A DNA stretch of 61,062 nt. Origin: an archaeon. Its GTDB lineage: Archaea > Nanobdellota > Nanobdellia > Woesearchaeales > UBA9642. The stretch spans positions 1 through 61,062 of the forward strand of contig JAZDHK010000013.1 in assembly GCA_043806035.1 (NCBI GenBank), written 5' to 3'. The notes under the pieces were generated by a model, which saw only the letters and a program-made list of their open reading frames with translations, ran no database searches and had not been told where the DNA came from. Both the position numbers and the translations under genes were made by a program. Position 1 is the stretch's first letter; the number at the start of each line of letters is the position of its first letter. Shown one piece after another: positions 4,278 through 51,566 of this stretch.

Positions 4278-4405
4278 GCTCCGTTAGTGTAGCGGCCAAT
4301 CATCCCGCCCTCTCAAAACTGACCTCAGTTTGCACGGAAGCGGGCTTGCAGCCCACTGAGTTTTATAGAAAGGCGGTGACCCGGGTTCGAATCCCGGACG
4401 GAGCA
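4278..4405 (+). tRNA. tRNA-Glu(CTC) with 55-nt intron at 37/38 (4316-4370)
   Basis: GCTCCGT/ACGGAGC acceptor, CCGCC/GGCGG anticodon stem, CCGGG-TTCGAAT-CCCGG T arm. Confidence 0.93.
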
Positions 4406-4462
4406 TGCACGGAGATGACGTCTTTCTCCAGGAATAATCTGTGAAAAATACAGGAGCACTAT

Positions 4463-4789
4463 ATGAAAAACTTCAACAAAAAACCAAAGTTCGGAACACG
4501 TGGCGGCTCAAGATTCAAGAGCAGTGGATTTCAACGGGATCGATTCGACAATCGCCTGCAGATGCATGAAGTGACGTGCGATGCGTGCAAGAGGCCATGC
4601 AAAGTCCCCTTTAAACCGAGAAACAACAAGCCCGTGTACTGCAATGACTGTTTTGGCAAGCAGGATAGGCAGTCGAAGAACGAGCAGCCCGATAGTAATC
4701 TGGCGGATCAGCTTGAAGAATTGCGTGAACAAGTAGAGGAGCTTAACGAGAAAATCGATAAGATCATGCGTTCGCTCAGCATCGATTAG
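4463..4789 (+). CDS. CxxC-x17-CxxC zinc-ribbon protein with C-terminal coiled coil
   Basis: CDAC..C.VPFKP....PVYCNDCF; basic Gly/Arg-rich N-terminus. Confidence 0.85.
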   Translation: MKNFNKKPKFGTRGGSRFKSSGFQRDRFDNRLQMHEVTCDACKRPCKVPFKPRNNKPVYCNDCFGKQDRQSKNEQPDSNLADQLEELREQVEELNEKIDKIMRSLSID

Positions 4790-4790
4790 G

Positions 4791-6254
4791 CTATTTTCTC
4801 TTTTTTATTATTGCGTGCTTGATGATGGGAACTTGTGAAGGATGCGGGATGAAGGTAGTGACTTCATCGGCAACATCCTCTGCAGTCCCCACCACTTCCT
4901 TTATTTTGTTCTCAGCAACATCGAGCACGTACAAGGTCTGGTCGAGCGTGTACTCGACGGGATGCATCACGGCAAGCTCGAGAAAGAGCTTGCTTTCGCG
5001 GATACGCTTGTTGATGCGGAGCTCCTTGACGATGGGCATGAGCAGGTACACGGAGAGGAAGCGCAGCATGAACGAGATGAACATGACCAGCAGGATGACT
5101 TTCACGTTAAGGAAGGGAGTGAGGTGGCTGACAAGATAACTCCCGAGCAGCCCACCAAGCAGGACACCGACGCCCAGAATAACATTAAAATATGCAGAAA
5201 AAACTGCCGTGTTCGTCTTGCCCGTGCTCTCCAGCACGTAATTGAACGTCGTAAGTTCCATGCCCGCCCAGCCAAAGCCCGAGATGAGTTCAGTAAACAC
5301 GATGAATACGAAGACGTAATTCGTGTGTGAAAAGAATTGGCCGGCGATGAACCAGCCGAACGGAACGAGGCTGATGAGGAATCCTGACACGAGCATGATG
5401 TTCCTCGTGCCGAATTTCACGCTGTTCCTCCCCCAATACGGCATGGACAACGACCTGAAGACGAGTGGGAGAATGACTATGAGCATGTACTGCACGTACG
5501 AGAAGTGCAGATCTCTGAGCATGAACACGGCAAAGAAAGGTCCTGCAACAGTAACGCTGAATGAGAACAGGCTCCTGAAGATCACGAATCTTCCGAATTT
5601 GTTTTTAGCGATCGTGCCCAAGAATTCTCTGAACGGGGTCACGGGCGCCTTGACCATCTCCGGCTCATCATGCTTCAGCAGATAAAACCAAGATACCAAT
5701 CTGCCGAGCAGCGCAATACCAAAAAGAATGCCAAAGCCCACCCATATGTTCATGCTGTCGAACGTGTTCAGGATGACGCCTGCCACGAAAATGGAAAGCA
5801 CCATCGCGATAATGGCGTACTTTCCTCTTTTGCTGAAATAGACTGCTCGTTCATGCGCACTGACGACCTGGCCCATCCACGACGTCCATGCCGGAAGGGT
5901 CATGTTGCTGAACACAAGATACACTGCAAAAAGCAGGGTGAGCAAAAGCATGTTCTTCGTGAGCAGCGGGAGGAAAAAGAGGGGCAAGAGCATACCTGCT
6001 TGCAAAAATACGAAGAGCGTGACGAGCTTCTTGCGTGTCCACTGTTGGGAAAGGCGCGCACCCAATAATTGGAAACAGCTGCCGATACAAGAGGGAACAG
6101 AACCGAGCAGGGCAATCTCTGAAGGGAGTGCTCCCAGTCTGAGCGCAAAAGGAGTTATGTACTGTTCCCCAAATCCGTAAAGCACGTTATTTGCGCAGCC
6201 ATCGACGATACTGTACTTTTTTGTGCGTTCCTGCTGCGCTTTGGTCAAGGACAT
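4791..6254 (-). CDS. MFS transporter
   Basis: ~12 hydrophobic helices, WTSWMG and SxPYWG motifs; start moved to ATG 6254 because the longer ORF overlaps a tRNA. Confidence 0.85.
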   Translation of the reverse strand: MSLTKAQQERTKKYSIVDGCANNVLYGFGEQYITPFALRLGALPSEIALLGSVPSCIGSCFQLLGARLSQQWTRKKLVTLFVFLQAGMLLPLFFLPLLTKNMLLLTLLFAVYLVFSNMTLPAWTSWMGQVVSAHERAVYFSKRGKYAIIAMVLSIFVAGVILNTFDSMNIWVGFGILFGIALLGRLVSWFYLLKHDEPEMVKAPVTPFREFLGTIAKNKFGRFVIFRSLFSFSVTVAGPFFAVFMLRDLHFSYVQYMLIVILPLVFRSLSMPYWGRNSVKFGTRNIMLVSGFLISLVPFGWFIAGQFFSHTNYVFVFIVFTELISGFGWAGMELTTFNYVLESTGKTNTAVFSAYFNVILGVGVLLGGLLGSYLVSHLTPFLNVKVILLVMFISFMLRFLSVYLLMPIVKELRINKRIRESKLFLELAVMHPVEYTLDQTLYVLDVAENKIKEVVGTAEDVADEVTTFIPHPSQVPIIKHAIIKKRK

Positions 6255-6323
6255 GCTGCCTAAGAAAATTTCATGTTTTATTAACGTTATGTTTTTAAAG
6301 AGAAGATAATTCTGTGCACCGCT

Positions 6324-6407
6324 GCCGCGGTCGCATAATCTGGTATTGCGCAGAGCTCGAACCTCTGTGCCTGAAAGGGCTTCTCGGTTCAAATCCGAGC
6401 CGCGGCG
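6324..6407 (+). tRNA. tRNA-Ser(CGA)
   Basis: GCCGCGG/CCGCGGC acceptor, CAGAG-CTCGAAC-CTCTG anticodon arm, long variable arm, CTCGG-TTCAAAT-CCGAG. Confidence 0.93.
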
Positions 6408-6482
6408 TAGTAAGAGAGAATACACATAGTTCGGTTTAATAAAAACTCACACATTTATAAACATGAACTTCTCGTATCAATT

Positions 6483-7142
6483 GTGGAACATTTCCCTTTA
6501 GTCGATCGGCTACATACGGATGTGCTTGAAGAAAAATACGGGCCAATCCATGCTGTTGTTCTGGTGCATAATGAAAAAATGCGACTGGCGCACCTTGCTG
6601 ATGTGAAGGACGTATCAAGAACCTTTGCTATAACGTTCTTCTCTGCCAGTTGGACATCCGATGTTCGTCGCATCGACAAAGACATACGCAAAGGAACACC
6701 TATTGGAAAAGCATTCCGGAAAAAAGAGTACGCCATCAGAAAGAATGTCCTTGAAGTCTATACCCTGCAAATACCTCCCTGGTTGAAAACAGCATTTGAC
6801 ACGCGAGCAATGCGAGCAAAAGCACGATTGTCAGAATTCTATGCAAAGAAGAGAGGCCAGCCTCCCGTCATGTATGGTGTTGTCATTGAAATATACTCTC
6901 CTGATTTCAGAACAGCAACCATTAACAAGGTGGATCGAGCTCAGGAGAGTGCACTGACTCAGGAATTAGAAAAACAAGGATTTACCAAAGAAGAAATCTG
7001 GAGAAGAATAGGCAGAGAAAATGACTATGAAGACCAAAAAAAAGCATTTGCCGTAGCAAAAAAGGAATCAATCACTGCGAAAGCGAAGTTTAAACGAAAG
7101 ATTGCTGCTCTGCTGAAACGTCAAAACGAAGCACACCCATGA
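6483..7142 (+). CDS. hypothetical protein, possible chorismate-lyase/UTRA-like fold
   Basis: PIGKAF and VIEIYSP motifs resemble UbiC/DUF98-like proteins; GTG start 25 nt after TTTATAAA. Confidence 0.45.
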   Translation: MEHFPLVDRLHTDVLEEKYGPIHAVVLVHNEKMRLAHLADVKDVSRTFAITFFSASWTSDVRRIDKDIRKGTPIGKAFRKKEYAIRKNVLEVYTLQIPPWLKTAFDTRAMRAKARLSEFYAKKRGQPPVMYGVVIEIYSPDFRTATINKVDRAQESALTQELEKQGFTKEEIWRRIGRENDYEDQKKAFAVAKKESITAKAKFKRKIAALLKRQNEAHP

Positions 7143-7747
7143 ACACCCATCTTAACGAACCCAAACTGCGCAAGTTGCTTTCGGCACAACACCTGCTTAC
7201 GCCGCTCGTCGAAAAGGCATTGCAGCAGGCAAAGAGAAGCCACGAGCACCACAAACGAGATAGTGGCGCATCCTATCTCGAAGAGCACATCTATCCTGTT
7301 ACGAGCAGCGTCCTTGAGCACTATACGGGAGAACACAAAGACAAAGTCGTCGCCACTGCATTACTGCACGATGTTCTCGAGGACGATCCGCATTTGGACA
7401 GGGAACAATTTGCGAAAGACTTCGCACCAGTCATATCTTGGGTGGAAGCGCTGACCAAACCAGCATGGAAGGATGCGCAAGGGACGACGATGGAAGAGAA
7501 GAAGCACGTCGCATTCAGTGCATATCTTAAGCAGCTCAACGCTGCACCGCAGGAAGTGAAGCTCATCAAATGCCTTGACCTCCTGAATAACATCACGCAC
7601 ATGACCCTGGCAACACCTGCACGACGGGCATCGCTGCTCAGGAAATTCGACGTTGCCTATCTGGAGTTCATCAAGACATCCTGCCCGTTTCTGTATGAAC
7701 GCATCAAAGAGAAGCACACTATCGCAAAAACACTAAAAATTGAATAA
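7139..7747 (+). CDS. HD-domain hydrolase (RelA/SpoT-type, small alarmone hydrolase-like)
   Basis: H...KRDSG.SY..H, ALLHDVLED, VEALTK, IKxxDxxxN motifs. Confidence 0.8.
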   Translation: MNTHLNEPKLRKLLSAQHLLTPLVEKALQQAKRSHEHHKRDSGASYLEEHIYPVTSSVLEHYTGEHKDKVVATALLHDVLEDDPHLDREQFAKDFAPVISWVEALTKPAWKDAQGTTMEEKKHVAFSAYLKQLNAAPQEVKLIKCLDLLNNITHMTLATPARRASLLRKFDVAYLEFIKTSCPFLYERIKEKHTIAKTLKIE

Positions 7748-7865
7748 TATTCAAAAATAAAGGTTATTTCTTAATAGAATTCAAATAAACTTCAATAACA
7801 TATAAGAAGTCACGCGTCCTCCTCCCCATTGCAGCACAGACTGCGGAGGAAGAACATGGACTCGT

Positions 7866-8492
7866 GTGATGGACTTTATCGGTAAAATAGGTGCGTTCAA
7901 CGTACGAATGCTTCTCCCCAAAGACATCCCTGCAGCACAGCAGGAGCACATCGTACGGCAGTTGAATGACATCAGCACGGACGCCTTCAACAAGTACACA
8001 CCTCTAGACGAGACCCGGGAACGGACGATGGGTGTAGACAGGATATATCTCATCGAAAAAGGCACTGACGTTCTCGGCTACGCGACAAACCACCGCATGA
8101 AGCTTGCAGGAGAGAACGTGAATTATTTCAGCAGCGCACTTTTCACGAGAGCATTGCAGGGCAAGCGCATCTACAAACAGCTCAACAAGCTGAGGCTACA
8201 GCACCTGCCAAGCGACATCATCATGACCCGAACACAAAATCCAATCGTGGTGCATGCCTTCAGGAAATTATGCGAAGAAACGGGCAGGGACTGTTTCCCA
8301 AACGGCAAGCTCGACCAGCATGCCCTGCACATCGCTCACGCATACGCTGACTGCAGCGACGAGATGATCTGCAAGGGCGTCTATGGCCGGCAGCTCATGG
8401 ACAATACACCCGCGCCCGGCCGTGAAGAAAGAGCACTCTTCTCCACGCTCGACATTGAGCAAGGTGATGCCGTCATCCTCATTGGAAAATAA
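7866..8492 (+). CDS. GNAT-like acetyltransferase
   Basis: LQGKRIY acetyl-CoA-loop-like motif and RTQNP motif. Confidence 0.6.
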   Translation: MMDFIGKIGAFNVRMLLPKDIPAAQQEHIVRQLNDISTDAFNKYTPLDETRERTMGVDRIYLIEKGTDVLGYATNHRMKLAGENVNYFSSALFTRALQGKRIYKQLNKLRLQHLPSDIIMTRTQNPIVVHAFRKLCEETGRDCFPNGKLDQHALHIAHAYADCSDEMICKGVYGRQLMDNTPAPGREERALFSTLDIEQGDAVILIGK

Positions 8493-8538
8493 CCTTTTTT
8501 TCATAATTTTTATAAACAACCCAACCGAGCACAAGTGC

Positions 8539-9603
8539 GTGGACGAACTCACGAGACTGACGGCAAAACTCATCACGTTCAAAACCGTGAAAGAACATCC
8601 GGAAGAGCTGCAGCGCTGCACGGAATTCATAGCCAGATACTTCAAGAACAAGCACGTCAGGAAATTCATGCATAACGGCAAGCCGAGCCTGTTCATAACG
8701 AACAGAAAGACAAAAAGGCCAAAAATCCTGCTCAACGGTCACATCGACGTGGTGGAAGGCGAACCTGAACAATTCCTGCCAAGAATAAAAGCAGGCAGGC
8801 TCTATGGCAGAGGCGCCGTAGACATGAAAGCGGGCGTCGCTGCCTGCATGCTCGCCATGCAGCACAGCACAGGAGATGTGGGATTGATGATCGTTGCCGA
8901 TGAAGAAATAGGTGGCATGGACGGCACGGGCTTTCTCATCAAGAAAGGATACGGAGGAAGGTTCGTGATCGGCGCCGAGCCCAATCAGGCAAAGCAGCCA
9001 GGACAGCTTGACATCACGATTGCTCACAAAGGCGTCCTCTGGATAAAGGTCATTGCGCACGGCAAGGCCTGCCACGGCAGCAGGCCCTGGCTCGGCAAGA
9101 ATGCTGCAGAGAAACTCATTGCTGCATACGCTGCCATAAAAAAAGCGTTCCCCGAAACCACTCCTCAGGACAGGTGGAAGAACACCCTCAATCTGGGATC
9201 CATCCATGCAGGAAACTCACCAAACAGAGTTCCCGACCGTGCAGAGATGACGCTCGACATTCGATTCACCGAGAACAATACGCCGCAGAAGCTCCTCTCT
9301 CGCCTACGTAAACTGACGGATTGCAAGATAGAGACCATCGAGGCAAGCCCTCTCCTCAAGAACAAGAATAATCGGATGATAAAAAAATTGCAGAAGACCA
9401 TCATGGCAACAACAAAAAAACCTTGCCTTCTCCTGAAAGAGCACGGCTCGTCAGACCTCAGATACACCTCAGAAAAAGGCATGACCTCCGTCATCTTCGG
9501 CCCGAGAGGGGCGAACTATCACGGCAAGGACGAATATGTTGAAGTACGCAGCCTCGCCACATACTACGCTGCGCTCATGCGATTCCTCAACGAAGAATCG
9601 TGA
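8539..9603 (+). CDS. M20 family metallopeptidase/deacylase (DapE/ArgE-like)
   Basis: NGHIDVV, GRGAVDMK, DEEIGG, HGSRPW, H..DE motifs; GTG start ~23 nt after TATA. Confidence 0.9.
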   Translation: MDELTRLTAKLITFKTVKEHPEELQRCTEFIARYFKNKHVRKFMHNGKPSLFITNRKTKRPKILLNGHIDVVEGEPEQFLPRIKAGRLYGRGAVDMKAGVAACMLAMQHSTGDVGLMIVADEEIGGMDGTGFLIKKGYGGRFVIGAEPNQAKQPGQLDITIAHKGVLWIKVIAHGKACHGSRPWLGKNAAEKLIAAYAAIKKAFPETTPQDRWKNTLNLGSIHAGNSPNRVPDRAEMTLDIRFTENNTPQKLLSRLRKLTDCKIETIEASPLLKNKNNRMIKKLQKTIMATTKKPCLLLKEHGSSDLRYTSEKGMTSVIFGPRGANYHGKDEYVEVRSLATYYAALMRFLNEES

Positions 9604-9613
9604 ATTCTTTGTT

Positions 9614-9829
9614 CTACAAGTATTGACGTGCTGCGAACAATGTAGAGACGAGATCGGCAAGGCCCACACCCACCATGATCTCTCCGATGATGAAAGAATC
9701 GGACTGCTGTCCTGTATACATGAGCAATCCCCCGCCAACAATGGCAGCAGTGTCTAGTGCATAATGCATGCAACGATAATGGTCGTACACCCAGTCACGC
9801 ATGTTGTTTCGAATACCTTGATAGTTCAT
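9614..9829 (-). CDS. small membrane hypothetical protein
   Basis: 71 aa, two hydrophobic segments, directly downstream of 9834..10601. Confidence 0.5.
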   Translation of the reverse strand: MNYQGIRNNMRDWVYDHYRCMHYALDTAAIVGGGLLMYTGQQSDSFIIGEIMVGVGLADLVSTLFAARQYL

Positions 9830-9833
9830 GATA

Positions 9834-10601
9834 TCACTTATTCAACATCCATTTTACGTACGCATAGAGAAGCAATGCCCATTCGATCATGCGCATATTT
9901 CCCTCATACGCACGACGGATGCCTTGCTGTATGCTCAGCACGTCATTGGTTATCTTCTCAACAGGTTGCAATTCATGAACGGGAATCCTTCCCTTAATAA
10001 TGTTGAACGTCTGCTTGCTCAAGTGTTCCTGCAATGTCACGTGAAAGAGGAATCCTGTGCTGAGCGATTCGTGCAAGTCCCCTATCCTGTTGAGTGGCCC
10101 CTCGTGGATGATGTCCTGGTAGTTGAAACTGAACTCCTCGTGTCGCAGGAGTTTTTGGAAGATACCATTCAGGCGAAGGTCGAGCTCTTTCTTTTCTCCC
10201 TCCGTCCTTGCCGCAGGAATGCCGTTCAGTATGGTTGCAGCCTCTTTGTTGAATCCGTCCTGCCACTGCGCTATCTCTTCTGCAAAGACGAGATTGTTCG
10301 TGAGCGGCCGTGGAAGCTCATCCAGCATGGCAAGCGCTCGCTGCAAGTTTATGGCCTCATATGTCGGGCTGTTCAAGGCGATGAGCGTGCGTACGTCCTG
10401 CATGACGGGGCCGAGCATTTTCAGAGCATTCGCCATCATCTCCCTATCTGAAGCGCTTACAAAATACGGTGCGAACTGCCGCCAGAGCTGCTCTTCACTG
10501 AAGGGAGGGGGCGTCTTTTGCTTCAACTCCCTGATGAGCGGCGTCGCCTCGATGTCTGCAGAACGGACGTTGAAATCTTTGAGCGTATGAATGTAGAGCA
10601 T
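9834..10601 (-). CDS. helical hypothetical protein
   Basis: 255-aa ORF, ATG ~25 nt after TATA-like element. Confidence 0.7.
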   Translation of the reverse strand: MLYIHTLKDFNVRSADIEATPLIRELKQKTPPPFSEEQLWRQFAPYFVSASDREMMANALKMLGPVMQDVRTLIALNSPTYEAINLQRALAMLDELPRPLTNNLVFAEEIAQWQDGFNKEAATILNGIPAARTEGEKKELDLRLNGIFQKLLRHEEFSFNYQDIIHEGPLNRIGDLHESLSTGFLFHVTLQEHLSKQTFNIIKGRIPVHELQPVEKITNDVLSIQQGIRRAYEGNMRMIEWALLLYAYVKWMLNK

Positions 10602-10638
10602 ACCTGTGTTACGGACATTCCCAGTATAAATACTTTTC

Positions 10639-11322
10639 TCATTGGCGAGTGGCACGGATTCGCGCACAAGGCAAAAGCTGCAAGAGATCAATGGCTCTTC
10701 GAGGGTTTCCCCTTCCTATGGGAAAATAGCAAGGGATTATTTTTGTTGCGTGACCCGCGATGGTTACGGAAAACTGCTGCAACGATGCTGTGCGCAGTGC
10801 AGCAACGTGATACTCAGCAAGTTTTATCTTTTGCTTTGCTAACCATTCGAAAGGAATGAGGCCGAATGTCACGATGTGCACAGGCTTGACAATGCTAATT
10901 TCTTTTTCAAGTATGGGCAGAAACATCTTTATTTTTTGCGCGTCGGGAAGCGCAGCATCATGCCCTGTCCATTTCACGATGTTGGTGAAGTAGAACCCTT
11001 TTCTTCTGAGAAAGGCAAGCACGTCCTCTGCAAGACCAACGGACCAGTACGTACTCTGCTCAATTCGTGCAAGGAGCCGTTCATCAAAAAGTCCCGCCCT
11101 GCTGAAGATTCTCCATATGTGTTTCGTGCCGAGGAACGGATATCGGGGGCCTTGCCAATTCTTGTCCGAACTGATATTTCTTACTGTTGGGTTGATGAAG
11201 ACGAACATGCATTTCGGCTTGTGCGTTTGTCCGTTGCCGATGATAGGGACGAGTTCGTGATCAGGATAGTTGCTCGCATGCACTCTTTCCAGCTCTTTCC
11301 AGAGCGCATCAAGTTGTTCCAT
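10639..11322 (-). CDS. uracil-DNA glycosylase superfamily protein (divergent)
   Basis: G.G....K.MFVF, PFLG, YFTNIVK, L..EI.IVKP..IVTFG pattern. Confidence 0.75.
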   Translation of the reverse strand: MEQLDALWKELERVHASNYPDHELVPIIGNGQTHKPKCMFVFINPTVRNISSDKNWQGPRYPFLGTKHIWRIFSRAGLFDERLLARIEQSTYWSVGLAEDVLAFLRRKGFYFTNIVKWTGHDAALPDAQKIKMFLPILEKEISIVKPVHIVTFGLIPFEWLAKQKIKLAEYHVAALRTASLQQFSVTIAGHATKIIPCYFPIGRGNPRRAIDLLQLLPCARIRATRQ

Positions 11323-11349
11323 CAGACCCTCGCATGTTGCTGCTGTAGT

Positions 11350-11622
11350 TCATTTCCGTAATCTCTTCTGCTCAATACAGGAGTAGACGGGGTAGAAGAT
11401 GATGTAGAAGAGCGCGGCAAAGAATGCCGGGCTGAGCAGCAGCAAAGGAACGTCCTGTGCAGTAAATGATGAAGACGCGCACGTGCAATCAGAGCCCTTA
11501 CACAAACAGGGACTTTGTGAGACGAGAAGCAGCTCGATCAGGAAAAGCACGACAAAAATAGCAGCTGCTAGGCTGAGTCCCCAGGTGAGTTTTTTCTTGT
11601 TCGGCTTAAGACAGGACAGCAT
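11350..11622 (-). CDS. small Cys-containing membrane protein
   Basis: LKPNKKK N-terminus, two TM helices flanking a Cys-rich loop. Confidence 0.6.
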   Translation of the reverse strand: MLSCLKPNKKKLTWGLSLAAAIFVVLFLIELLLVSQSPCLCKGSDCTCASSSFTAQDVPLLLLSPAFFAALFYIIFYPVYSCIEQKRLRK

Positions 11623-11626
11623 AGTA

Positions 11627-12454
11627 TCATCCTCCAAATGTCTTTTGCAGCAGCACTGCATCTCCCTCTATGTTGGGGCTTTCGCAGATGACGCACCCTC
11701 GCACATTGAATGACTTCAACGTGAGAAGCAGGTCTGTGTAGTTGAAGTCTGACTCTTTGAGCAGGAGATGGTTCTTCTCTCCTTTCTCGCCGTAATTGAT
11801 TCCTGATATGTGGATGTGCATGTTCTGCAATCCTTCCTTGCCCAGCGTCTTTTCCACTTGTCCGAGCAGCGCTGAGAATTCCTGTTTCGTGTTGTTCCTG
11901 CCGTTGTATCGTGCGTGCAGGTGCGAGAAGTCGATGCAGGGCATGACGTGTTCCACATCCCGAGACAAGTTCAGGATTTCCTGCAAGTCTCCCCATTGCG
12001 TTTCTTTACCTGTCGTCTCCGGCCTGACCCACACGTTGTTTCCTTCATCGTGCAATGTCTTCGTGATGAGCTGCATGTTTTTCTTGATGGTGTCATACAC
12101 GACAGGTTTGTCCATACCAAGATAGAATCCTGCATGAAATGTTAAGGAATAGCCACCGCATAAGTGCAGGATACGCGCTGCATTCAGGACGCGTTGGATG
12201 GACGCATGCATTTTCTCCTTTTCCTGCGCATTCAAGTTGATATAGTACTGGCCGTGTGCAGTCAAGATTATGTCGTTGTCCTGCGCTGTTTTCTTGACAG
12301 CGGGAGCGAGTTCTTTTGAGACGTTCACGGAATGGACGAATTCAAGCTCCATGCAGTCCAGCCCGAGCTCGCGAACTCGCGCTATGCCCGTCAGAGTTGA
12401 TGGCTTTTGTGTCGAGAGCGGAATGCCCGCTGTGCCGAAGCGCAGGATGTCCAT
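11627..12454 (-). CDS. nfo: endonuclease IV family (AP endonuclease, TIM barrel)
   Basis: FGTAGIP, ELEFV, HGQYYINL, PETTGK, DFSHLHAR, HIHISGI, ESP. Confidence 0.88.
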   Translation of the reverse strand: MDILRFGTAGIPLSTQKPSTLTGIARVRELGLDCMELEFVHSVNVSKELAPAVKKTAQDNDIILTAHGQYYINLNAQEKEKMHASIQRVLNAARILHLCGGYSLTFHAGFYLGMDKPVVYDTIKKNMQLITKTLHDEGNNVWVRPETTGKETQWGDLQEILNLSRDVEHVMPCIDFSHLHARYNGRNNTKQEFSALLGQVEKTLGKEGLQNMHIHISGINYGEKGEKNHLLLKESDFNYTDLLLTLKSFNVRGCVICESPNIEGDAVLLQKTFGG

Positions 12455-12524
12455 GTTCCTTCCAATAATGCAAAGTATAAGTATTTTGCGAAAAAACTGC
12501 TCAGCGTTGCACATGAGCAAGAAT

Positions 12525-12836
12525 TCAGTCATCGATCATTTCAATCTCAATATTGAGCCCTTCAGGGATGTGCACCTTCATGACCAATCGCAAGGCGCGT
12601 TCGTCCGTCGCGATATCGATGAGGCGTTTGTGCACCCGCATCTCGTAGCGCTCCCAGGTCGCCGTGCCATTGCCGCACGGGCTCTTTCTCGTAGTAACGC
12701 GTAATTTCTTTGTAGGAAGAGGTATGGGGCCGCGCATGACCACACCGGTCTTTTCTGCGATGTCCTTGATGTACGAACACGTCGCATTCAGCTTGTCGAT
12801 ATCGGTGCTTGCTAACTTTATGCGTGCTTTCTGCAT
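12525..12836 (-). CDS. rps10: 30S ribosomal protein S10 (uS10)
   Basis: [26 protein letters not shown]. Confidence 0.97.
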
Positions 12837-43618: not shown

Positions 43619-43625
43619 GCAACAC

Positions 43626-43895
43626 CTATTTGAGCTGTCCGAGCACGGAGATCGCGAATGGCTTCTTGCAAATCGTGCCTAACTCATCATTCGGCATGTC
43701 CAGCTCGACCACGTCCGCAGGACAGACAACCAGGTAGCGTTGCACATCCTTGCGCACGTCCGCAGGACAGTTCACACTCAAATACACCTTGATTATCTTT
43801 CCTTTCTTCAGCAAGTCCAACGTGCGCTTCGTGCCAAACACTGCCTTGTCCGTGCCTATCAATTTCTTAATATCATCAACACTCATCATCGTCAC
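43626..43895 (-). CDS. rpl30e: 50S ribosomal protein L30e
   Basis: G.K.T...L, S.NCP, ELG.IC.KPF.IS. Confidence 0.92.
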   Translation of the reverse strand: MTMMSVDDIKKLIGTDKAVFGTKRTLDLLKKGKIIKVYLSVNCPADVRKDVQRYLVVCPADVVELDMPNDELGTICKKPFAISVLGQLK

Positions 43896-43896
43896 C

Positions 43897-45051
43897 TTAT
43901 TTTGCTTTCTTCACGCGCGTGATCAGTCCGGGCAGTCCCGTTCCCACGGGAATGTATTGGTTCATCATCACATTCTCGATGACACTGTTCAGATGGTCTT
44001 CCTCACCGACCATGGCCGCACCGATGATGTGCTTGATAGGCGTCTCGAAGCTCGCCCGTGCGAGGACGGAAGGCTTCTCTTTCACAATACCATATCTGTT
44101 GATGCCCAGTATCTTGCCACCCATGCACATGGCATCGGCGATAAGCAGAATATGCCTCGTATCGACGTTCAATCCTTGCGCGTCAATGACCTTCTTCACT
44201 TCATCAACGATGGCCTGCCGTGCCGCTTCGATGCCGAGCACATCCTGTATTTCAAAAACGTCATTCGTCCTCGTCAAAGCAGCATCGACGAATTCGAGCT
44301 TGAAGACATCCTTAAGGTTGCTGCCAGCGGTGACGATGACGAACTCGTCTCCCCGACGCACCGGCAGGACCTGCTTGATGCCCTTGATGCCGGTAATGTA
44401 GACATCCTTGATTTTCTCCTTCAGCTTGTACAGGCTGTTGATATCCTCGTCCTTAGCAGAGCTCTTGACGATGATGATGCACGCATCATTCTTGTCCTCC
44501 TTGAAGTGATAGTTCTTGAATGCCTTCTCGAGAATCTTGACGAACTGGCCTGCCTTGAGCTTGAGCTCGTCCAGCTTGTCCTTGTGCAACTCCATGCGCA
44601 ACAAGCCTTCTGCAATGTTCAGTGTAATCTCCTTGAGATAATCCCTAACGACCGTCTCCCGCAATGATTCCGCAAGCTTTCGCACATCCGCCCCTTGATT
44701 GTGCGGCTTCTTTAGATGGATCTCCATCATCTTCGTGCTGATTTCCTTCCTGCCATCCAGCAGTTCGATGAGTCGAGGAAGGCCCGTCGTGACGTTCATC
44801 TCGGACACGCCCGCAAAGTGGAACGTGTTCAGGGTCATCTGCGTGCCAGGCTCACCGATGCTCTCTGATGCAATGATGCCGACGCTCTCCCCCGGTTCTG
44901 TGCGCGCGCTCAGAAACTCCTTATAGACGGCATCCATGATTTTTTTCAGCTGCGTCTTCGTCGTCTTTGGAGGGATGTTCGTTTTGACATCCTCAATGAT
45001 TTTCTTCGGAAGCAACACGCCATATTCTTCAAAGATGTCATCCATGATCAT
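43897..45051 (-). CDS. rpoA2: RNA polymerase subunit A'' (Rpo1C)
   Basis: SIGEPGTQMTLNTFHFAG, GLPRLIE, RASFE. Confidence 0.97.
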   Translation of the reverse strand: MIMDDIFEEYGVLLPKKIIEDVKTNIPPKTTKTQLKKIMDAVYKEFLSARTEPGESVGIIASESIGEPGTQMTLNTFHFAGVSEMNVTTGLPRLIELLDGRKEISTKMMEIHLKKPHNQGADVRKLAESLRETVVRDYLKEITLNIAEGLLRMELHKDKLDELKLKAGQFVKILEKAFKNYHFKEDKNDACIIIVKSSAKDEDINSLYKLKEKIKDVYITGIKGIKQVLPVRRGDEFVIVTAGSNLKDVFKLEFVDAALTRTNDVFEIQDVLGIEAARQAIVDEVKKVIDAQGLNVDTRHILLIADAMCMGGKILGINRYGIVKEKPSVLARASFETPIKHIIGAAMVGEEDHLNSVIENVMMNQYIPVGTGLPGLITRVKKAK

Positions 45052-47663
45052 CAGTCCTCCAGCACCCTATTGATGATGGTCTTGACGTTGATCGAACCAC
45101 CCTCTGATTTCGTCACGTCGATACCATCCTCGCCGTATGCGAACTCGACGATCTTGCCTGACGCGTCACGCACGGTGAAATCATACTCAACCTTGAGGTC
45201 CTGCAAGGCATTCGCCAAGCGTCGATACAAATATCCTGACTTAGGAGTACGCAAGGCAGTATCCATCATACTGTCCCTGCCCGTCATGCTCATGAAGAAC
45301 AGCTCGTGCGGCTTCAAGCCGTGCTTGAACCCTCCCGGGATGAATCCCCGCGCTGCGGGACTCACGTCATTCTTCGCAAAACAGGAAAGTGTCCTACCAC
45401 TATATCCTCTACCGATTCTGCCACCGCGGAATGCCTGCTGACCGACACAACCGGACATCTGCGTGATATTCAACGAAGACCCTCGGCCACCGCTCTTGAT
45501 CATGTACATCAAGTTCGAGTTCACCATCGCCCTCGAGTTGGTGATTTCCCCTGCCCTGTTTCTCGCCTTGTTGAGCAGTTCGAGCAAGCGGACCTCCCTC
45601 GTCTCTTTCGCCGTCCTGCCGGGTAGCACGTCGAGCTTTCCTGTGTTGTACTCTTCGATGATGCGCTTGGCATCTTCTTCCGCCTTGCGCAGGATGGCAT
45701 TCAACTCTTTTTGCGTATTCTCACTGACGTCAAGCTCTGCGATGTTCACGGAGAAGCCGTAGCGCAGCATGACCTCATTGCCCAAGTTGAAGAAATTCCC
45801 AAGAATCTTCATGGTAAGTTCTGCACCATATTGCTTGTGCAAGTTTCGCAACATGAGCCCCTGTCCAACGCCGAGCGTGTTCTTGTCGAGCACGCCACTG
45901 ATGAGCTTTCCATCCTTGATCAAGACGACCGTGTCTTCATTCTCCATGCCTGGCTTGTAGCCCCTTGCATAGCCCTGGAAGTTGAAGTCATCAGGCAAGC
46001 AGCAGCTGAACACCTCTCTGCCACTAACCACTTCCCTGTTCGGCAGTTTCGAGAAGTTCGTAAATCCTATCCCTGCAAGAATGTCAAGCGCTTCCTCACG
46101 GGGCAACTTGAAGTCTGATTTCGTCAGCAAATACGTCCCCGTAACTGCTTCCATAGTGCAGCCAATGATGCTCAGGCCATACCTCGGGCTGATAATGTGA
46201 TGCTGCACCTTCATGAGCACTTCTGCTTCCGCTCGCGCTTCCTCCGTCTGCGGGACGTGCAAGTTCATCTCATCACCGTCAAAATCTGCATTGTAAGGGA
46301 TACACACCGCAGGATGCAAACGCAACGTCAGTCCTGGCAACACCTTGACCGTGTGGCACATCATGCTCATGCGGTGCAGTGAAGGCTGTCGGTTGAACAA
46401 GGCAACATCACCGTCGAGCAGATGCCGCTCGATAATGTAGCCGGGCTGAATCTCCTCCAGCAACTGTTCCTTCGTCTCATCAGTTATTTTCTTTCTCTTG
46501 CCATCGGGTCTGATGATGTAGTTCGCTCCAGGATACTGCTCTGGTCCGCGCTTGATGAACTCGACAAGGTATTCCTTGTTCCACTCCGTCACGCGTTCGG
46601 GAACGGTAAGCTTCATGGCAATGACTCTGGGTACGCCAACGTCGCCAATGTTTAATTTCGGATCTGGACTGATAACCGTTCGTGCAGAGAAGTTCGTCCT
46701 CTTGCCCGCGAGGTTGTGCCGGATACGTCCTTCCTTGCTCTTTATCCGTGCAGTGAGCGTCTTGAGCGGCTGACCGCTTCTGTGCCGTGCGGGAGGCAAT
46801 TGAGAAACTTCATTATCAAAAAATGTCGTGACGTGATACTGCAAAAGATCCCACAAGTCTTCAATGATAATTTCGGGAGCGCCTGCGTTGATGTTCTCGA
46901 AGAGACGCTGATTGATACGCACGATATCGCCAAGCTTGTGCGTGAGGTCATCTTCAGAGCGCTCGCCGCTCTCCAATGTTATGGAAGGCCGCATCGTCAC
47001 AGGAGGAATGGCCAAGACGGTGAGCACGGTCCATTCAGGTCGCAAGGTATTCGCATTGATGCCCAGCACTTGCAAGTCGTTGTCTGGAATCTTCTCGAGC
47101 CTCGTCCTCACCTCGATAGGACTGATGCGCTTTTCATTCTCGATGAATGTCGTCGGCTTTTCAACGGTTATCTTGAATTGTTTTGCGTTGCAGTGGCTGC
47201 ACTGCATGACCGCCTTCGCTCCATGAATGACTTCCTTGACCTTGGCCAGGCGAGCCATGATACCACCTTCCGCCTCTGCCTGGTCGATCGCATCCTCTTC
47301 TTTAGCAATCTTCTGCTTGGGAATGAGTAGTCTGCCGCATGACCTGCACGTACTCCGTAGCAGATCGAGAATGACGGTTGCGAACTTCACATGGATGACT
47401 GGCCTCGCGAGTTCAATGTAGCCGAAATGCCCGAGGCTTTCTTTGAGCTTCTGCCCGTCCGTCTTGCACACCAGTCCCGGATCGATAACGCCTAAGCGGA
47501 TGTCCATCAAGCCACCGTCGACAGGATACCCTTCCTTGTCATACAATTCAGGCGTCACGATCTTCGCTACGGCCATGTCCTTGATGACTTTCGGCGAGAA
47601 AAACTCGAAGCGGATCTTGTCAATTTTGTGCTGGACGGGAATACCTGCATCCATGATTATCAC
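45051..47663 (-). CDS. rpoA1: RNA polymerase subunit A' (Rpo1N)
   Basis: YNADFDGDEMN, NRQPSLH, SGYLYRRL. Confidence 0.98.
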   Translation of the reverse strand: MIIMDAGIPVQHKIDKIRFEFFSPKVIKDMAVAKIVTPELYDKEGYPVDGGLMDIRLGVIDPGLVCKTDGQKLKESLGHFGYIELARPVIHVKFATVILDLLRSTCRSCGRLLIPKQKIAKEEDAIDQAEAEGGIMARLAKVKEVIHGAKAVMQCSHCNAKQFKITVEKPTTFIENEKRISPIEVRTRLEKIPDNDLQVLGINANTLRPEWTVLTVLAIPPVTMRPSITLESGERSEDDLTHKLGDIVRINQRLFENINAGAPEIIIEDLWDLLQYHVTTFFDNEVSQLPPARHRSGQPLKTLTARIKSKEGRIRHNLAGKRTNFSARTVISPDPKLNIGDVGVPRVIAMKLTVPERVTEWNKEYLVEFIKRGPEQYPGANYIIRPDGKRKKITDETKEQLLEEIQPGYIIERHLLDGDVALFNRQPSLHRMSMMCHTVKVLPGLTLRLHPAVCIPYNADFDGDEMNLHVPQTEEARAEAEVLMKVQHHIISPRYGLSIIGCTMEAVTGTYLLTKSDFKLPREEALDILAGIGFTNFSKLPNREVVSGREVFSCCLPDDFNFQGYARGYKPGMENEDTVVLIKDGKLISGVLDKNTLGVGQGLMLRNLHKQYGAELTMKILGNFFNLGNEVMLRYGFSVNIAELDVSENTQKELNAILRKAEEDAKRIIEEYNTGKLDVLPGRTAKETREVRLLELLNKARNRAGEITNSRAMVNSNLMYMIKSGGRGSSLNITQMSGCVGQQAFRGGRIGRGYSGRTLSCFAKNDVSPAARGFIPGGFKHGLKPHELFFMSMTGRDSMMDTALRTPKSGYLYRRLANALQDLKVEYDFTVRDASGKIVEFAYGEDGIDVTKSEGGSINVKTIINRVLED

Positions 47664-49483
47664 TCCTTAACCTCGACGGGCGCTATCTCCCTGAACTTGC
47701 TCTCCACAATGATGCGCGGGTAGACGCCGAGCGTCTTGAGCTCATCCAGGAACAGCTTGAATGCGTAGCTCATCTCCACGGGGACGAGCTCTGCCTCCTC
47801 GCCATACAAGGGGCTGATGGGTTTTTTCTTCCTCGCATCATAATACCCTATAAGACCACTCTTCAGGCACACGTACACGATGACCTTGTCGCTGTCAAAC
47901 CGTTCCTTGAGCAGCAGGCTCGCGCCATGCGCGATGAGGGTGTCCTTCTCCATCTCTCCCAACCTGAGGCCTCCTTCTTTTGCCCTGCCTTCTGTCGGCT
48001 GTCGGGTAAGGAGTTGTATGCTTCCTCTTCCTCTGCTGTGAATCTTGTTCTGCACCAGATGCTTGAGTTTGAGATAGAACATGTTTCCCACAAAAATCCG
48101 TGATGTGTACTGCTTTCCCGTAATGCCTGAGTACATGATTTCTGTGCCGTCCTCGGAGAAGCCATAGCTGGCAAGTTCCTTGCGCAAGTCCTCCTCGCGC
48201 TCAGACTGGAACATCGTCCCGTCAACGTATCTTCCTGAGAGTGCACCAACCTTGCCGCCCACCAATTCGATGAGGTGTGCTACCGTCATACGTGTGGGGA
48301 GGCTGTGCGGGCTGAACAGAATGTCAGGGATGATACCCCGTTCGCTGAACGGCATGTCCTCTGCAGGAATGATCAGACCAATCACTCCTTTCTGCCCGTG
48401 CCTGCTCGTGAACTTATCTCCAATTTCAGGGACGCGCTCGTCACGCAAGCGCACTTCAATCAGCTTGTTCCCTTCGCTGTTCTCCGTGATGATCACGAAG
48501 TCGACGACGCCGTGCTCGCCGTGCTTGAGTGCTGCACTGCTCTCCCTGCGCTGGTTGCTCGTGAGATTGTACTCGTCCGTGCTGCTCAAGAATCTCGGGG
48601 GAGAAGTCTTGCCAATGATGACGTCGCCTTCCCCGATCCTCGCCTCAGGATAAATGATGCCGTCAGGCTCCAAGAATCGGTAGTCTCTCTCGGACTTGTA
48701 GCCCTTGACGTCCTTGTCAGGAATGCACACTTCGTCGATCAGGCCACCGCTATACCGCAGTTCTTCCGTGACCATGGGTCTGTAGTAGGAGCTTCTTCCT
48801 AGTCCTCTGTCGATGCTGCCTTGATTCACGACGATGGCGTCTTCCATGTTGTAACCATCGAATGCCATGACTGCCAACGTCACGTTGAGCCCTTGTGGGT
48901 GCTTGTAGTCCTGATAGATGCTGTGCAGGACGGTGCTGCAGATGGGCACTTGTGCATAGTGCAGCAGGCTGACATCCATGTCCATGCGTGTGAAAAAATT
49001 TGCTGCATAAAAGCCGATGGCGTGCTTCTGATTCTTTGATCCTTGCACTAAACGCACGGCGTGGTTGAAATTGCCAAAGGGAACGAGATTCGTGCACAAG
49101 CCGAGAATGTCACATGGCGCAACCTCGAGATGCGTGTGGTTGAGCGAGAGTTCTTCTTCGGAGAGTGCGACGAATGCGCTCTCCTCCTCCGTTGCATCTA
49201 GGTATTCGATGATGCCTTGCTTGACGAGGTCCCACCAGCCCAACTTGTTCTGCTGCAATTGCTGGATGTGCTGCTCGGTCAGCAGCGGCTTGCCGTCTTT
49301 GACGATGATCAACGGGCGGATGCACCTGCCTCTGCTCGTCTCTACAAAGACACCTGCAGGAGTGCTGAGGACGTTCACATAATGGCTCAACTTGCCTGCA
49401 CGCCTGTTAGAGAGGAGCTTGTCAACGAACACTTTTGGGTCTTGCACGCTGCCGACGAATTTGTTATCGAGATAGACGTCCAT
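47660..49483 (-). CDS. rpoB1: RNA polymerase subunit B' (Rpo2C)
   Basis: GDKFTSRHGQKG, RQPTEGR, GGLRLGEMEKD. Confidence 0.97.
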   Translation of the reverse strand: MDVYLDNKFVGSVQDPKVFVDKLLSNRRAGKLSHYVNVLSTPAGVFVETSRGRCIRPLIIVKDGKPLLTEQHIQQLQQNKLGWWDLVKQGIIEYLDATEEESAFVALSEEELSLNHTHLEVAPCDILGLCTNLVPFGNFNHAVRLVQGSKNQKHAIGFYAANFFTRMDMDVSLLHYAQVPICSTVLHSIYQDYKHPQGLNVTLAVMAFDGYNMEDAIVVNQGSIDRGLGRSSYYRPMVTEELRYSGGLIDEVCIPDKDVKGYKSERDYRFLEPDGIIYPEARIGEGDVIIGKTSPPRFLSSTDEYNLTSNQRRESSAALKHGEHGVVDFVIITENSEGNKLIEVRLRDERVPEIGDKFTSRHGQKGVIGLIIPAEDMPFSERGIIPDILFSPHSLPTRMTVAHLIELVGGKVGALSGRYVDGTMFQSEREEDLRKELASYGFSEDGTEIMYSGITGKQYTSRIFVGNMFYLKLKHLVQNKIHSRGRGSIQLLTRQPTEGRAKEGGLRLGEMEKDTLIAHGASLLLKERFDSDKVIVYVCLKSGLIGYYDARKKKPISPLYGEEAELVPVEMSYAFKLFLDELKTLGVYPRIIVESKFREIAPVEVKE

Positions 49484-49486
49484 GGT

Positions 49487-50977
49487 TCACTTCCTCTCCT
49501 GCAAGCCGAGCGTCTTGAGCTCAGCCAATATTTTTGTCTCGTCGAGGACGGGGGTGACACTTGCCAAGATGGCCAGGTTCTTCCTTAGACCTATGTTCGT
49601 TCCCTCGGGGGTCTCGGAAGGGCAGAGCCTGCCTAGGTGGGTGCTGTGCAAGGATCGCGCCTCGAAATTCTCTTGCGATGTGGATAAGGGACTGACGACG
49701 CGTTGCAGATGCGACATGGCCTGCAGGAAATTCAGACGTTCGATACGTTGCGAGACGCCTTTCCTGTTGCCCACCCACGAGCCTGTCGCCATGGCACTGT
49801 AAATGTGCTGGGTCAACAGTTTTTCGCGGATGATGACCTTGATGCTGGGGAACTTGCCTCGCTTGACAATTCGTTGAAAGTTGTAGAGCATGTCGCCGAT
49901 GAGCATCTTCATGTTGACACGGATGAGGTCTGCCAGGAGATCTCCTGCCAGTTTCAGGCGTTTGTTCATGTAATGGTCTCTGTCGTCGATCTGCACCTGC
50001 TTTGAACTCACGAGGATGAACTGTCTGAGGAGTTTGCACAAGTTGTACGCCTTGAACGGCCTGTCCTTGCGCTCGATGCCGAGGTGCGGCAGCAAGTACT
50101 TGTCGAGAATTTCTTGCATGCGCTCGATGCGGATGTCCTTCGTCTGCGTGATACCTACTTTTTTTGCGACAAAGTCGACGGCGTCATCTTCCGTCTTGAC
50201 ATCGACGTACTCGTAGATATTGATGAAGACTTCGCTGCTATCAGACAAATCGATAAACTTCATGATGTCCTCATCACTGATAAGACCGAGTGCCTTAATG
50301 ACCGCGATGATGGGAATCCTCTTAACGCGCGTGAATGTCAGATAGTACATGCCGTCTTTGAGGCGTTCGATTGTGTGGGGGATCTTGTAGCTGCCCCGCT
50401 CTGAGAAGAGCCTGCCAACGTATTCGGAGACGCCCGTGCTTGCCTCGTCGATGAGGAGCTTGTTCGGTGCGAGGTCTTCCACTTTGACGAGTACTTTTTC
50501 CGTGCCGTTGATGATGAAGTAGCCTCCTGGATCGTCAGGGTCTTCTCCCTGCTTGACGAGGTCGTCACGGGAAAGGCCGTTGAGGTGGCAATACTTGCTC
50601 TTGAGCATGATGGGCAAATTGCCTATCTGCGTCTTGAAGCTCTCCCGCTGCACGCCGTTGATGTGCGCAGAAACCTCAAGAGAGACGGGAGCGCTGTACG
50701 AGAGTTTCCTCAGACGTGCCTCGGTGGGGAAGACGCTTCTTCGCGAACCGTCAGCTTCTGTAATCTCTGGTTTGCCAATCTCGATCTTGTCTATGCAGAT
50801 CTTGAAGTCATCGATGTTCGGCGGGATGATGGTTGGTTCAATGACCTTGTTCTCGTCGATGATGATGGGCAGTTCTTTCTCTACGAAGTCATTGAAGCTC
50901 TGGATGTCCGCCTGAATCAAAGAATTCTCCTCAAAATATTTTTTGATAAGCAATTTTGCAGTCGTGTCTTTACTCAT
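49487..50977 (-). CDS. rpoB2: RNA polymerase subunit B'' (Rpo2N)
   Basis: EARLR.LSY, GGYFIINGTE, CPSETPEG. Confidence 0.96.
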   Translation of the reverse strand: MSKDTTAKLLIKKYFEENSLIQADIQSFNDFVEKELPIIIDENKVIEPTIIPPNIDDFKICIDKIEIGKPEITEADGSRRSVFPTEARLRKLSYSAPVSLEVSAHINGVQRESFKTQIGNLPIMLKSKYCHLNGLSRDDLVKQGEDPDDPGGYFIINGTEKVLVKVEDLAPNKLLIDEASTGVSEYVGRLFSERGSYKIPHTIERLKDGMYYLTFTRVKRIPIIAVIKALGLISDEDIMKFIDLSDSSEVFINIYEYVDVKTEDDAVDFVAKKVGITQTKDIRIERMQEILDKYLLPHLGIERKDRPFKAYNLCKLLRQFILVSSKQVQIDDRDHYMNKRLKLAGDLLADLIRVNMKMLIGDMLYNFQRIVKRGKFPSIKVIIREKLLTQHIYSAMATGSWVGNRKGVSQRIERLNFLQAMSHLQRVVSPLSTSQENFEARSLHSTHLGRLCPSETPEGTNIGLRKNLAILASVTPVLDETKILAELKTLGLQERK

Positions 50978-51230
50978 CGACAACACCCCGGTAGAAGACA
51001 ATGTCGCCGGCGGTGGCGCTGGTCCTCATGATCTTGATAATATCGCCGGACTGGACATTCAGGTCATGAATGGCAGGATCATGTATGTTGATCTTTGGCA
51101 GGTCACGGACGGCGATGTTGTACTGTGCGAGCAGGGCTTTTTTTTCCTTCTCTGACACTTTGACGTGCTTAGGCACGAGGAGGTGATCTTTGATGAAGCT
51201 GCTGGGGTCTTTTGCGCGTCTCTTCTTCAT
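50970..51230 (-). CDS. rpoH: RNA polymerase subunit H (Rpo5)
   Basis: HLLVPKH, LPKI...DP, GDIIKI.R.S.TAG. Confidence 0.95.
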   Translation of the reverse strand: MKKRRAKDPSSFIKDHLLVPKHVKVSEKEKKALLAQYNIAVRDLPKINIHDPAIHDLNVQSGDIIKIMRTSATAGDIVFYRGVVDE

Positions 51231-51252
51231 GGTTTCCCTCGCTGATTATGAA

Positions 51253-51404
51253 CGGGTCGGACGAGACTTCCTTCAACCGCGGCTGTTGCCGGGATTGTTT
51301 CGAACTCGCGACCACCTGCTTAAAAGGCAGGCGCTCTAGTGCCCAACCGTCACCAGTCACCGTCACCAGTTGCTGGTGGGGTTTCCAGGCTGAGCTACCG
51401 ACCC
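51253..51404 (-). tRNA. tRNA-Lys(TTT) with two non-canonical introns: D-loop (~51339-51384, 46 nt) and T-loop (~51270-51301, 32 nt)
   Basis: GGGTCGG/CCGACCC acceptor, CCTGC-CTTTTAA-GCAGG; removing both inserts gives a 74-nt cloverleaf (junctions +/-2 nt). Confidence 0.88.
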
Positions 51405-51408
51405 GTCA

Positions 51409-51566
51409 CGCCCTGACCGGGACTTCCGACACCGACTCAATAGGCGCAAAGCCCGCTTCCATGTCATCTGAGTCCAGTTGTTTCGAACCCGGGTCGAGGC
51501 CTGTATGCGCAGCAGTTCTCTGCTAGCTCGACAGGGCCTCATGCTAGGCCTCTACACCATCAGGGC
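51409..51566 (-). tRNA. tRNA-Asp(GTC) with two introns: 37/38 (51503-51528, 26 nt) and T-loop (~51426-51484, 59 nt)
   Basis: GCCCTGA/TCAGGGC acceptor, AGGCC/GGCCT anticodon stem, CCGGG/CCCGG T stem; 73-nt mature form. Confidence 0.88.

Follow-up and report, generated by a model that had tools for sequence, protein, structure and literature searches.

A dispersed structured repeat in tRNA introns and beside tRNA genes of a nanoarchaeal genome: a candidate selfish mini-element

Look-alike introns in different tRNAs are known from Thermoproteales, where the cited passages give the mechanism as unknown (PMC4090602, PMC3239211), and it has been proposed that tRNA introns can be gained when a mobile element integrates into a tRNA gene (Sugahara et al. 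2012, PMC3293823, in the part cited). Introns at position 59/60, in the T-loop, have been reported from pre-tRNAs of ARMAN-2 (Ca. Micrarchaeum) in passages that treat this position together with the enzyme involved (Fujishima et al. 2011, PMC3239211), and a C/D box guide is described, in the cited part of another source, from the tRNA-Trp intron of Euryarchaeota (PMC12558985). By what route introns reach archaeal tRNA genes is still debated, and the matter is left open in the cited portion of a 2026 preprint on Asgard tRNA introns, in which copying, mobile elements and reverse transcription were tested (10.64898/2026.10.13.758758). Here we analyze a 61,062-nt stretch of DNA (the window; contig JAZDHK010000013.1) from an archaeon of the order Woesearchaeales, in which the introns of a tRNA-Glu and a tRNA-Asp gene share a 45-nt motif. 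This motif is one copy of a dispersed structured repeat of about 43 nt, which we name E.

The two 45-nt stretches had been singled out in a preliminary description made from the letters alone, and direct alignment confirmed them: positions 4317–4361 of the forward strand and 51435–51479 of the reverse strand match without gaps at 34 of 45 positions, around an exact 12-nt core (4336–4347 forward, 51449–51460 reverse). The chance of at least 34/45 matches is 1.7e-11 (binomial tail, p = 0.27), and the best match of the Glu 45-mer to unrelated places in the genome was 27/45 in an ungapped scan of all 3,004,538 positions. In-silico removal of 4316–4370 gives a 73-nt tRNA-Glu(CUC), and removal of 51503–51528 together with 51423–51481 gives a 73-nt tRNA-Asp(GUC), both called by ARAGORN; with the T-loop insert 51423–51481 kept, ARAGORN makes no tRNA call for tRNA-Asp. 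Removal thus restores both tRNAs, and the introns therefore lie at 37/38 and at 59/60 in the T-loop, bearing out the placement given in the preliminary description. Across the tRNA-Asp, tRNA-Glu and tRNA-Ala genes so treated, ARAGORN called canonical tRNAs of 73–74 nt. The features of the two window loci are as follows; the intron tails are read against the bulge-helix-bulge (BHB) splice motif.

4278–4405, forward strand: tRNA-Glu(CUC) gene with an intron (4316–4370) at 37/38, from ARAGORN run with introns and in-silico removal
4316–4358, forward strand: copy of E in the Glu(CUC) intron, spanning the whole model (1–43); cmsearch 64.4 bits (model R1) and 63.1 bits (model R2)
4316–4331, forward strand: hairpin 1 of this copy, a 6-bp stem with a 4-nt loop; supported by covariation and present in the minimum free energy fold of the pre-tRNA
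4332–4341, forward strand: single-stranded linker of this copy, RCAYG plus purines (alignment A6)
4342–4354, forward strand: hairpin 2 of this copy, GGGCT / AGCCC with a 3-nt loop; supported by covariation and alignment
4359–4370, forward strand: tail of the Glu(CUC) intron, pairing with anticodon-loop bases 32–35 (3/4) on a manual reading under the 3-4-3 BHB rule
51409–51566, reverse strand: tRNA-Asp(GUC) gene, exons 51566–51529, 51502–51482 and 51422–51409, from in-silico splicing
51528–51503 and 51481–51423, reverse strand: introns 1 (37/38) and 2 (59/60, T-loop) of tRNA-Asp
51438–51480, reverse strand: copy of E in the Asp T-loop intron; cmsearch 52.5 bits (R1) and 50.0 bits (R2)
51480–51465, 51464–51455 and 51454–51442, reverse strand: hairpin 1, linker and hairpin 2 of the Asp copy
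51423–51437, reverse strand: tail of the Asp T-loop intron, in which UCGG AAG pairs with T-loop bases 54–57 (4/4)

We traced the first extra copies in the 1.50-Mb, 42-contig genome of this archaeon (G000; C numbers denote its contigs) with nhmmer, starting from the two-copy alignment, and then built covariance models from 9 copies (R1) and, rebuilt, from 14 copies (R2). Twelve copies of E were found in the genome at an expectation value of at most 0.001 with R2, 11 of them already at an expectation value of at most 0.01 with R1. Five lie in 37/38 introns, namely those of tRNA-Glu CUC (window), Glu UUC (C40), Gln CUG (C24), Gln UUG (C4) and Ser UGA (C42), and two in 59/60 T-loop introns, those of tRNA-Asp GUC (window) and of tRNA-Ala UGC (C15), the tRNA in the spacer that separates 16S from 23S. 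The other five copies are outside introns: two directly follow a discriminator base, one of tRNA-Ala GGC (C1) and the other of a 24-nt copy of the tRNA-Trp 3' end (C41), and three are antisense in tRNA 3' flanks, those of Ala GGC (C1), Ala CGC (C33, 194 nt away) and Arg UCU (C37, 5 nt away). None of the 12 is farther than about 200 nt from a tRNA gene or fragment; the zone so defined covers about 1.4% of the genome. The proposal of a repeated, apparently mobile mini-element in tRNA introns is therefore supported by a family of 12, though one that is not confined to introns.

All nine intron copies (seven in this genome, two in the relatives G159 and G028) are in sense orientation, and in each of them the first base of E is the first or second base of the intron. 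The same element is common to introns of Glu, Gln, Ser, Asp and Ala tRNAs at different positions; the BHB-forming tails differ from site to site, and the shared unit is the core only. Likeness among the copies cuts across the kinship of the host tRNAs. The nearest relative of the Glu(CUC) copy is not the Asp copy but that of the tRNA-Gln(CUG) intron on C24 (37/45), which in turn is nearer to the Glu(UUC) copy (37/42) than to its counterpart in Gln(UUG) (29/39), and the copy nearest to the T-loop copy of Ala(UGC) is the 37/38 copy of Ser(UGA) (42/51). The operon around tRNA-Ala(UGC), at C15:8350–13366 on the reverse strand, runs 16S – tRNA-Ala(UGC) – 23S; the E-holding T-loop intron is 76 nt long, and the 23S match extends over 3159 nt against a model of 2987 positions.

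E folds into hairpin 1 (6 bp of the CAACTG/CAGTTG type, with a loop of 4–8 nt), a conserved linker, and a GC-rich hairpin 2, GGGCT/AGCCC or a longer variant. We assessed covariation on 26 matches, 25 of them distinct, which come from G000, from seven further genomes and from a single metagenome contig. Pairing held in 95.9% of 246 cells, against 23–49% in slid controls, and double-sided changes occurred at 6 of 11 pairs (28 cells) with a covariation score that 0 of 500 shuffles reached; because the sequences were aligned to the model itself, both the pairing and the covariation figures are flattered. Hairpin 1, of the CAACTG-N4-CAGTTG type, shows double changes at 4 of 6 pairs among the 25 distinct copies, and its variants in the alignment include TAACTG/CAGTTA, TAGCTG/CAGCTA, CAACTC/GAGTTG, CAAATG/CATTTG and GAGCTG/CAGCTC. 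This hairpin is also contained in the minimum free energy fold of the whole Glu pre-tRNA; single-sequence folds of the two 45-mers were no better than those of shuffled sequences (z of -0.75 and +0.79).

This architecture revises part of the preliminary description, which had proposed a GGGC:GCCY hairpin, a long-range CTCAG:YTGAG stem and an invariant, unpaired GGAAGC. The first covaries across the family. The second does not extend across it: it is complete in only two of the seven intron copies of the genome (Glu CUC and Asp), reaches 4 of 5 positions in Glu UUC, and is complete in none of the copies outside introns. It also uses the 3' half of hairpin 1 and competes with the local 6-bp hairpin. 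GGAAGC is not invariant either; what the family keeps is RCAYG followed by 1–6 mostly purine bases, a purine-rich stretch of variable length. The CTCAG:YTGAG pairing, like that between the 5' strand of hairpin 1 and the intron tail, would instead form the splice motif's outer helix (h'), which the precursor could adopt as an alternative fold and which would not belong to the repeat. On a manual reading of the splice motif (3-nt bulge, 4-bp helix, 3-nt bulge), the central helix has all 4 pairs in four introns, those of Asp, Glu UUC, Ala UGC and G159, and 3 of 4 in Glu CUC and Ser UGA, with h' weak in the T-loop introns.

The preliminary description had recognized no ribozyme or C/D motif, which agrees with our searches: at gathering score the only Rfam family in the whole window is tRNA, six E-holding stretches gave nothing beyond tRNA and noise at expectation values up to 5–10, and E contains no C/D boxes. 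Complementarity of E to 16S and 23S rRNA reaches 6–8 nt at most, a length equaled by 108–200 of 200 shuffles.

Orthologous sites in relatives hold other sequences or nothing. Among the tRNA-Asp genes of 13 relatives from the same family, a 59/60 intron is present in two (G004 and G001), each of unrelated sequence, and absent from 11; most of these genes have a 37/38 intron, again of unrelated sequence. The tRNA-Glu genes of eight relatives carry an unrelated 37/38 intron in five cases (G006, G003, G010, G018, G009) and none in three (G002, G013, G005). These comparisons show intron content turning over at fixed sites.

The spread of E among genomes is patchy. In searches scoring 42 candidates per genome, where the genomes are incomplete metagenome-assembled genomes and absences are soft, E was found in none of 18 genomes of the same family, in 7 of 150 other genomes of the same order (G028, G034, G045, G079, G125, G147 and G159, from six families), and in none of 132 genomes from other orders of the class. 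In family f11, the T-loop introns of two different tRNAs hold E (in G159 and G028, with copies 83% alike), and the two tRNAs are, on our reading, Arg UCU and Val CAC. In G034, G079 and G125 the copies are intergenic, those of the complete genome G034 standing just behind stop codons. Neither ARAGORN nor the Rfam tRNA model calls a tRNA at these loci; both tools miss intron-rich tRNAs, and the Rfam model recovered 1 tRNA in 11 loci of relatives, so a claim that these copies are not near a tRNA is unsupported. Exact-pattern scans returned only the two G034 sites found before from genome_contigs, one GC-rich stretch from viral_contigs that looks like a chance match, and eight stretches from metagenome_contigs, of which only L060 (36% GC, beside a tRNA-like D-arm) looks genuine.

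Several extragenic copies stand beside duplicated pieces of tRNA genes. In G000, E adjoins copies of tRNA ends of 17 nt with 1 mismatch (C1), 16 nt with 2 mismatches (C33) and 16 nt with 4 mismatches (C37). The copy in G045 lies beside a 20-nt copy of the tRNA-His 5' end, and that in G147 beside a 12–14-nt copy of the tRNA-Glu 5' end. The E of G079 and G125 sits within short tandem arrays or between direct repeats of 25–74 nt: such repeats are present at four G079 loci (L034, L039, L040, L041), and in G125 there is a tandem 87-nt unit. G079 also has E beside a ~19-nt tRNA 5' fragment. Two of these regions have further features of their own. At the G045 tRNA-His (L020, 1174–1478), a second copy of the first 20 nt lies 131 nt upstream, with E separating the two, and the last 32 nt recur 95 nt downstream. 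The tRNA-Glu genes of L088 (G005) and L037 (G147), from different families, are preceded by the same 12-nt copy of their own 5' end, then GAGCC and a hairpin-rich insert. In G147 this insert is E; the insert of G005 is a pair of AT-rich hairpins unrelated to it.

The reading that we favor, with somewhat more confidence than doubt, makes E a small selfish structured repeat that, once inside a tRNA gene, lasts there as a spliceable intron. It would be a non-autonomous element belonging to one order of Nanoarchaeia (DPANN), and its new copies would land, at the DNA level, in transcribed non-coding places: tRNA loop-coding sites (after nucleotide 37, after nucleotide 59, and in the D-loop), behind tRNA 3' ends and behind stop codons. 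A copy inside a tRNA gene would survive only if it were in sense orientation and its 3' bases paired with the exon into a bulge-helix-bulge; the splicing endonuclease would then remove E, and the copy would appear as an intron. We infer both the movement at the DNA level and the role of splicing in letting in-gene copies persist.

Speaking for this reading are the size and structure of the family, the whereabouts of its copies, the duplicated target sequence beside extragenic ones, the patchy spread, a likeness that cuts across tRNA kinship, the turnover at orthologous sites and the uniform placement of the intron copies. A further, weak point concerns a community metagenome contig with a tRNA-Asp-like T-arm, in which 51 nt including E are replaced by 8 letters and a ~16-nt intron with the same tail is left, as if E had been added to a short intron that was there before; the contig has a depth of 4.7, a shorter side of 22 letters and 88% likeness, and comes from another organism, and the community contigs give low and patchy cover with this one informative joint.

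A number of observations weigh against this reading. No empty site from the same species was found. No transposase or integrase adjoins E among 19 flanking open reading frames (ORFs) at 10 loci, although the genome has 7 tyrosine-recombinase matches, 2 Y1-transposase matches and 2 reverse transcriptases (and no TnpB-type match), and Y1 transposase genes are no commoner in E-bearing genomes (3/7) than in the order (56/150). With lengths anywhere from 12 to 74 nt, and none around the intron copies, the flanking repeats do not bear the signature of a classical transposase; duplication by strand slippage at hairpins could have produced them instead. Between families, copies show a likeness of only about 70% (at best 42/59 for those of G000), so ancient inheritance with many losses could also account for the distribution. 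Finally, the strict sense orientation and the 5' edge at RNA processing sites (the 5' splice site, or just behind a discriminator base) fit an RNA-level origin or function equally well.

A more far-reaching version of the selfish-repeat reading, which we regard as possible rather than probable, makes E a vehicle of archaeal tRNA intron gain. Here a mini-element of about 45 nt would insert at tRNA loop-coding sites and gene ends and become an intron wherever the flank forms a bulge-helix-bulge, and the stages of the process would be caught together: the extragenic copy with target duplication, the tRNA-end copy and the spliceable intron.

Transposition at the RNA level is, in our judgment, unlikely. 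An excised E intron would be reverse-spliced by endonuclease and ligase at a BHB-like site of another RNA, reverse-transcribed and recombined into the genome. The orientation and starting point of the nine intron copies suit this route, as do the two copies directly behind discriminator bases, which are RNA processing sites, the A-runs that follow several copies, and the two reverse-transcriptase (RT) genes of the genome (C34:19122–22739, L063; C1:218–3877, L064). Each of these genes, however, is preceded by a match to the Rfam RT-16 RNA (61.1 and 58.4 bits), which may point to dedicated retron-like systems; one of the two reading frames contains TAG. Further points against this route are the three copies antisense to the neighboring tRNA, the intergenic copies of G034, G079 and G125 (subject to the same blind spot of both tRNA tools), the restriction of the common unit to the core while the BHB-forming tails are site-specific, and the direct repeats of target DNA, which reverse splicing does not lead one to expect.

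That E is a module useful to the host seems improbable too. It would then be a structured RNA or a protein-binding site riding on tRNA processing and freed as a circular intron or 3' trailer, and compensatory changes that keep the hairpins, a linker motif kept across nine genomes, the copy in the tRNA-Ala of the rRNA operon's spacer, where transcription is high, and the coincidence of every 5' edge with a processing site all speak for it. Set against these are the failure to find E in the 18 searched genomes of the same family, the unrelated sequences of orthologous introns, the existence of antisense copies, the lack of an Rfam match and of C/D boxes, and an rRNA complementarity of 6–8 nt that is no better than shuffles.

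We give still less credence to E as a scar of tRNA-targeting integrase elements, that is, an attachment-site (att)-proximal arm of a plasmid or virus, with the intron imported through an intron-bearing attP as modeled in the cited part of PMC3293823. Copies of tRNA ends do flank several E copies, and the genome has 7 tyrosine-recombinase matches. Two of the tyrosine integrases lie directly behind a tRNA on the same strand, one (a 369-aa ORF, C24:2692–4020, L012) behind tRNA-Gln(CUG) and the other (C30:877–1770) behind tRNA-Trp(CCA), which is the layout of pNOB8-type integrated elements. The tRNA-Trp case nonetheless tells against E as part of such an element, the relevant feature being this one:

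C41:2860–2883: second copy of the tRNA-Trp end, 24 nt, directly followed by E

E stands beyond the second tRNA-Trp end and is therefore the original neighbor of tRNA-Trp, outside the integrated element. Moreover, the inserts between repeats measure 50–130 nt, not kilobases, no integrase adjoins the other E copies, the C24 integrase has no close relatives in genome_contigs or viral_contigs, and the single viral pattern match is in GC-rich, chance-like DNA.

A neutral recent copy between just two introns, without wider meaning, is hardly credible: it agrees with the purely one-sided (G-C to G-U), non-compensatory stem differences between the window copies, but the covariance model and genome search that the preliminary description had called for turned up further instances (12 copies in this genome, with more in seven other genomes and one metagenome contig) and covariation, and the two-copy account is thereby already refuted.

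Several known classes of element were also considered and rejected for E. A guide RNA was set aside for want of C/D boxes or an Rfam match and on rRNA complementarity no better than shuffles, and an intrastrand triplex repeat on the mixed sequence of both stems, the longest purine run in the window copies being 5 nt. Single copies lack terminal inverted repeats and have flanking repeats of 12–74 nt or none, unlike a classical transposon or a miniature inverted-repeat transposable element (MITE). A repeat moved by a Y1 transposase, of the kind known as repetitive extragenic palindromic (REP), was discarded on the Y1_Tnp counts given above; the complete genome G034 has no Y1 match, though E is present. 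An att scar was rejected on inserts of 50–130 nt without genes, despite the tRNA-end repeats. Nor is E, like a transposed intron of the Thermoproteales type, a repeat unit that equals the intron and stays within tRNA genes: 5 of 12 G000 copies and the copies in G034, G045, G079, G125 and G147 lie outside introns, and the tails differ from site to site.

The window also illustrates how readily intron-rich tRNA genes escape annotation. It holds at least six tRNA genes (near 4178–4405, at 6323–6408 and near 51300–51566), of which default ARAGORN found two and the Rfam scan at gathering score one, the intron-rich ones being missed. Both tRNA-Asp and tRNA-Ala(UGC), which have T-loop introns, were missed by ARAGORN even with the intron option, so that tRNA finders overlook genes of just this kind. 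Just downstream of tRNA-Asp, tRNA-Lys(UUU) (51300–51404, reverse strand) has a D-loop insert with a short tandem repeat; the insert starts with a CAACTG-like word, and the E model gives no match there. Elsewhere in G000, the word GGGGATGCA marks a separate repeat of at least 100 nt, of which there are 10 or more nearly identical copies, for example at C1:64501, C1:114805, C20:8069, C23:46977, C38:3793, C39:5757 and C42:9869.

With copies that form the intron core in seven tRNA genes, at two different positions, and extragenic copies beside duplicated target DNA, E provides a rare sequence handle on the origin and spread of archaeal tRNA introns. A defined, searchable repeat makes the question of intron gain testable by population genomics, small-RNA sequencing and biochemistry. 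A full-text literature search, with subscription journals outside its coverage, found no account of E, or of a repeat common to DPANN tRNA introns and extragenic DNA.

Bacterial REP palindromes, the bacterial interspersed mosaic elements (BIMEs) and MITEs are small structured repeats that follow genes, at times as inverted pairs or in short arrays, and whose stems are kept by compensatory change. E resembles them in these respects, but has only 1–12 copies per genome, a strong tie to tRNA genes, and no link to a Y1 (RAYT-type) transposase, terminal inverted repeats or fixed target duplication. With the C/D guide of the tRNA-Trp intron, as far as the cited passages describe it, E has in common that a structured RNA resides in a tRNA intron, from which splicing releases it (for E, a prediction); it differs in lacking C/D boxes, an Rfam match and any excess of rRNA complementarity. 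ARMAN-2 is, like the host of E, a DPANN archaeon with the same non-canonical intron position, and the cited portion of its account makes no mention of a repeat common to introns and extragenic DNA (PMC3239211). The integration model of Sugahara et al., in the part cited, matches this genome in having tRNA fragments as direct repeats by intact tRNA genes and integrase genes behind tRNAs; here, however, the repeats around E enclose 50–130 nt without a recombinase gene, and E lies outside the one integrase element with both ends placed. The transposed BHB introns of Thermoproteales, as the cited passages present them, come close to E in that similar introns occur in tRNAs of different identity and at different positions. 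They differ in that the unit shared among E copies is a 43-nt two-hairpin core rather than a whole intron, and in that E belongs to a Nanoarchaeia (DPANN) lineage and also occurs outside tRNA genes, in both orientations, beside duplicated target sequence.

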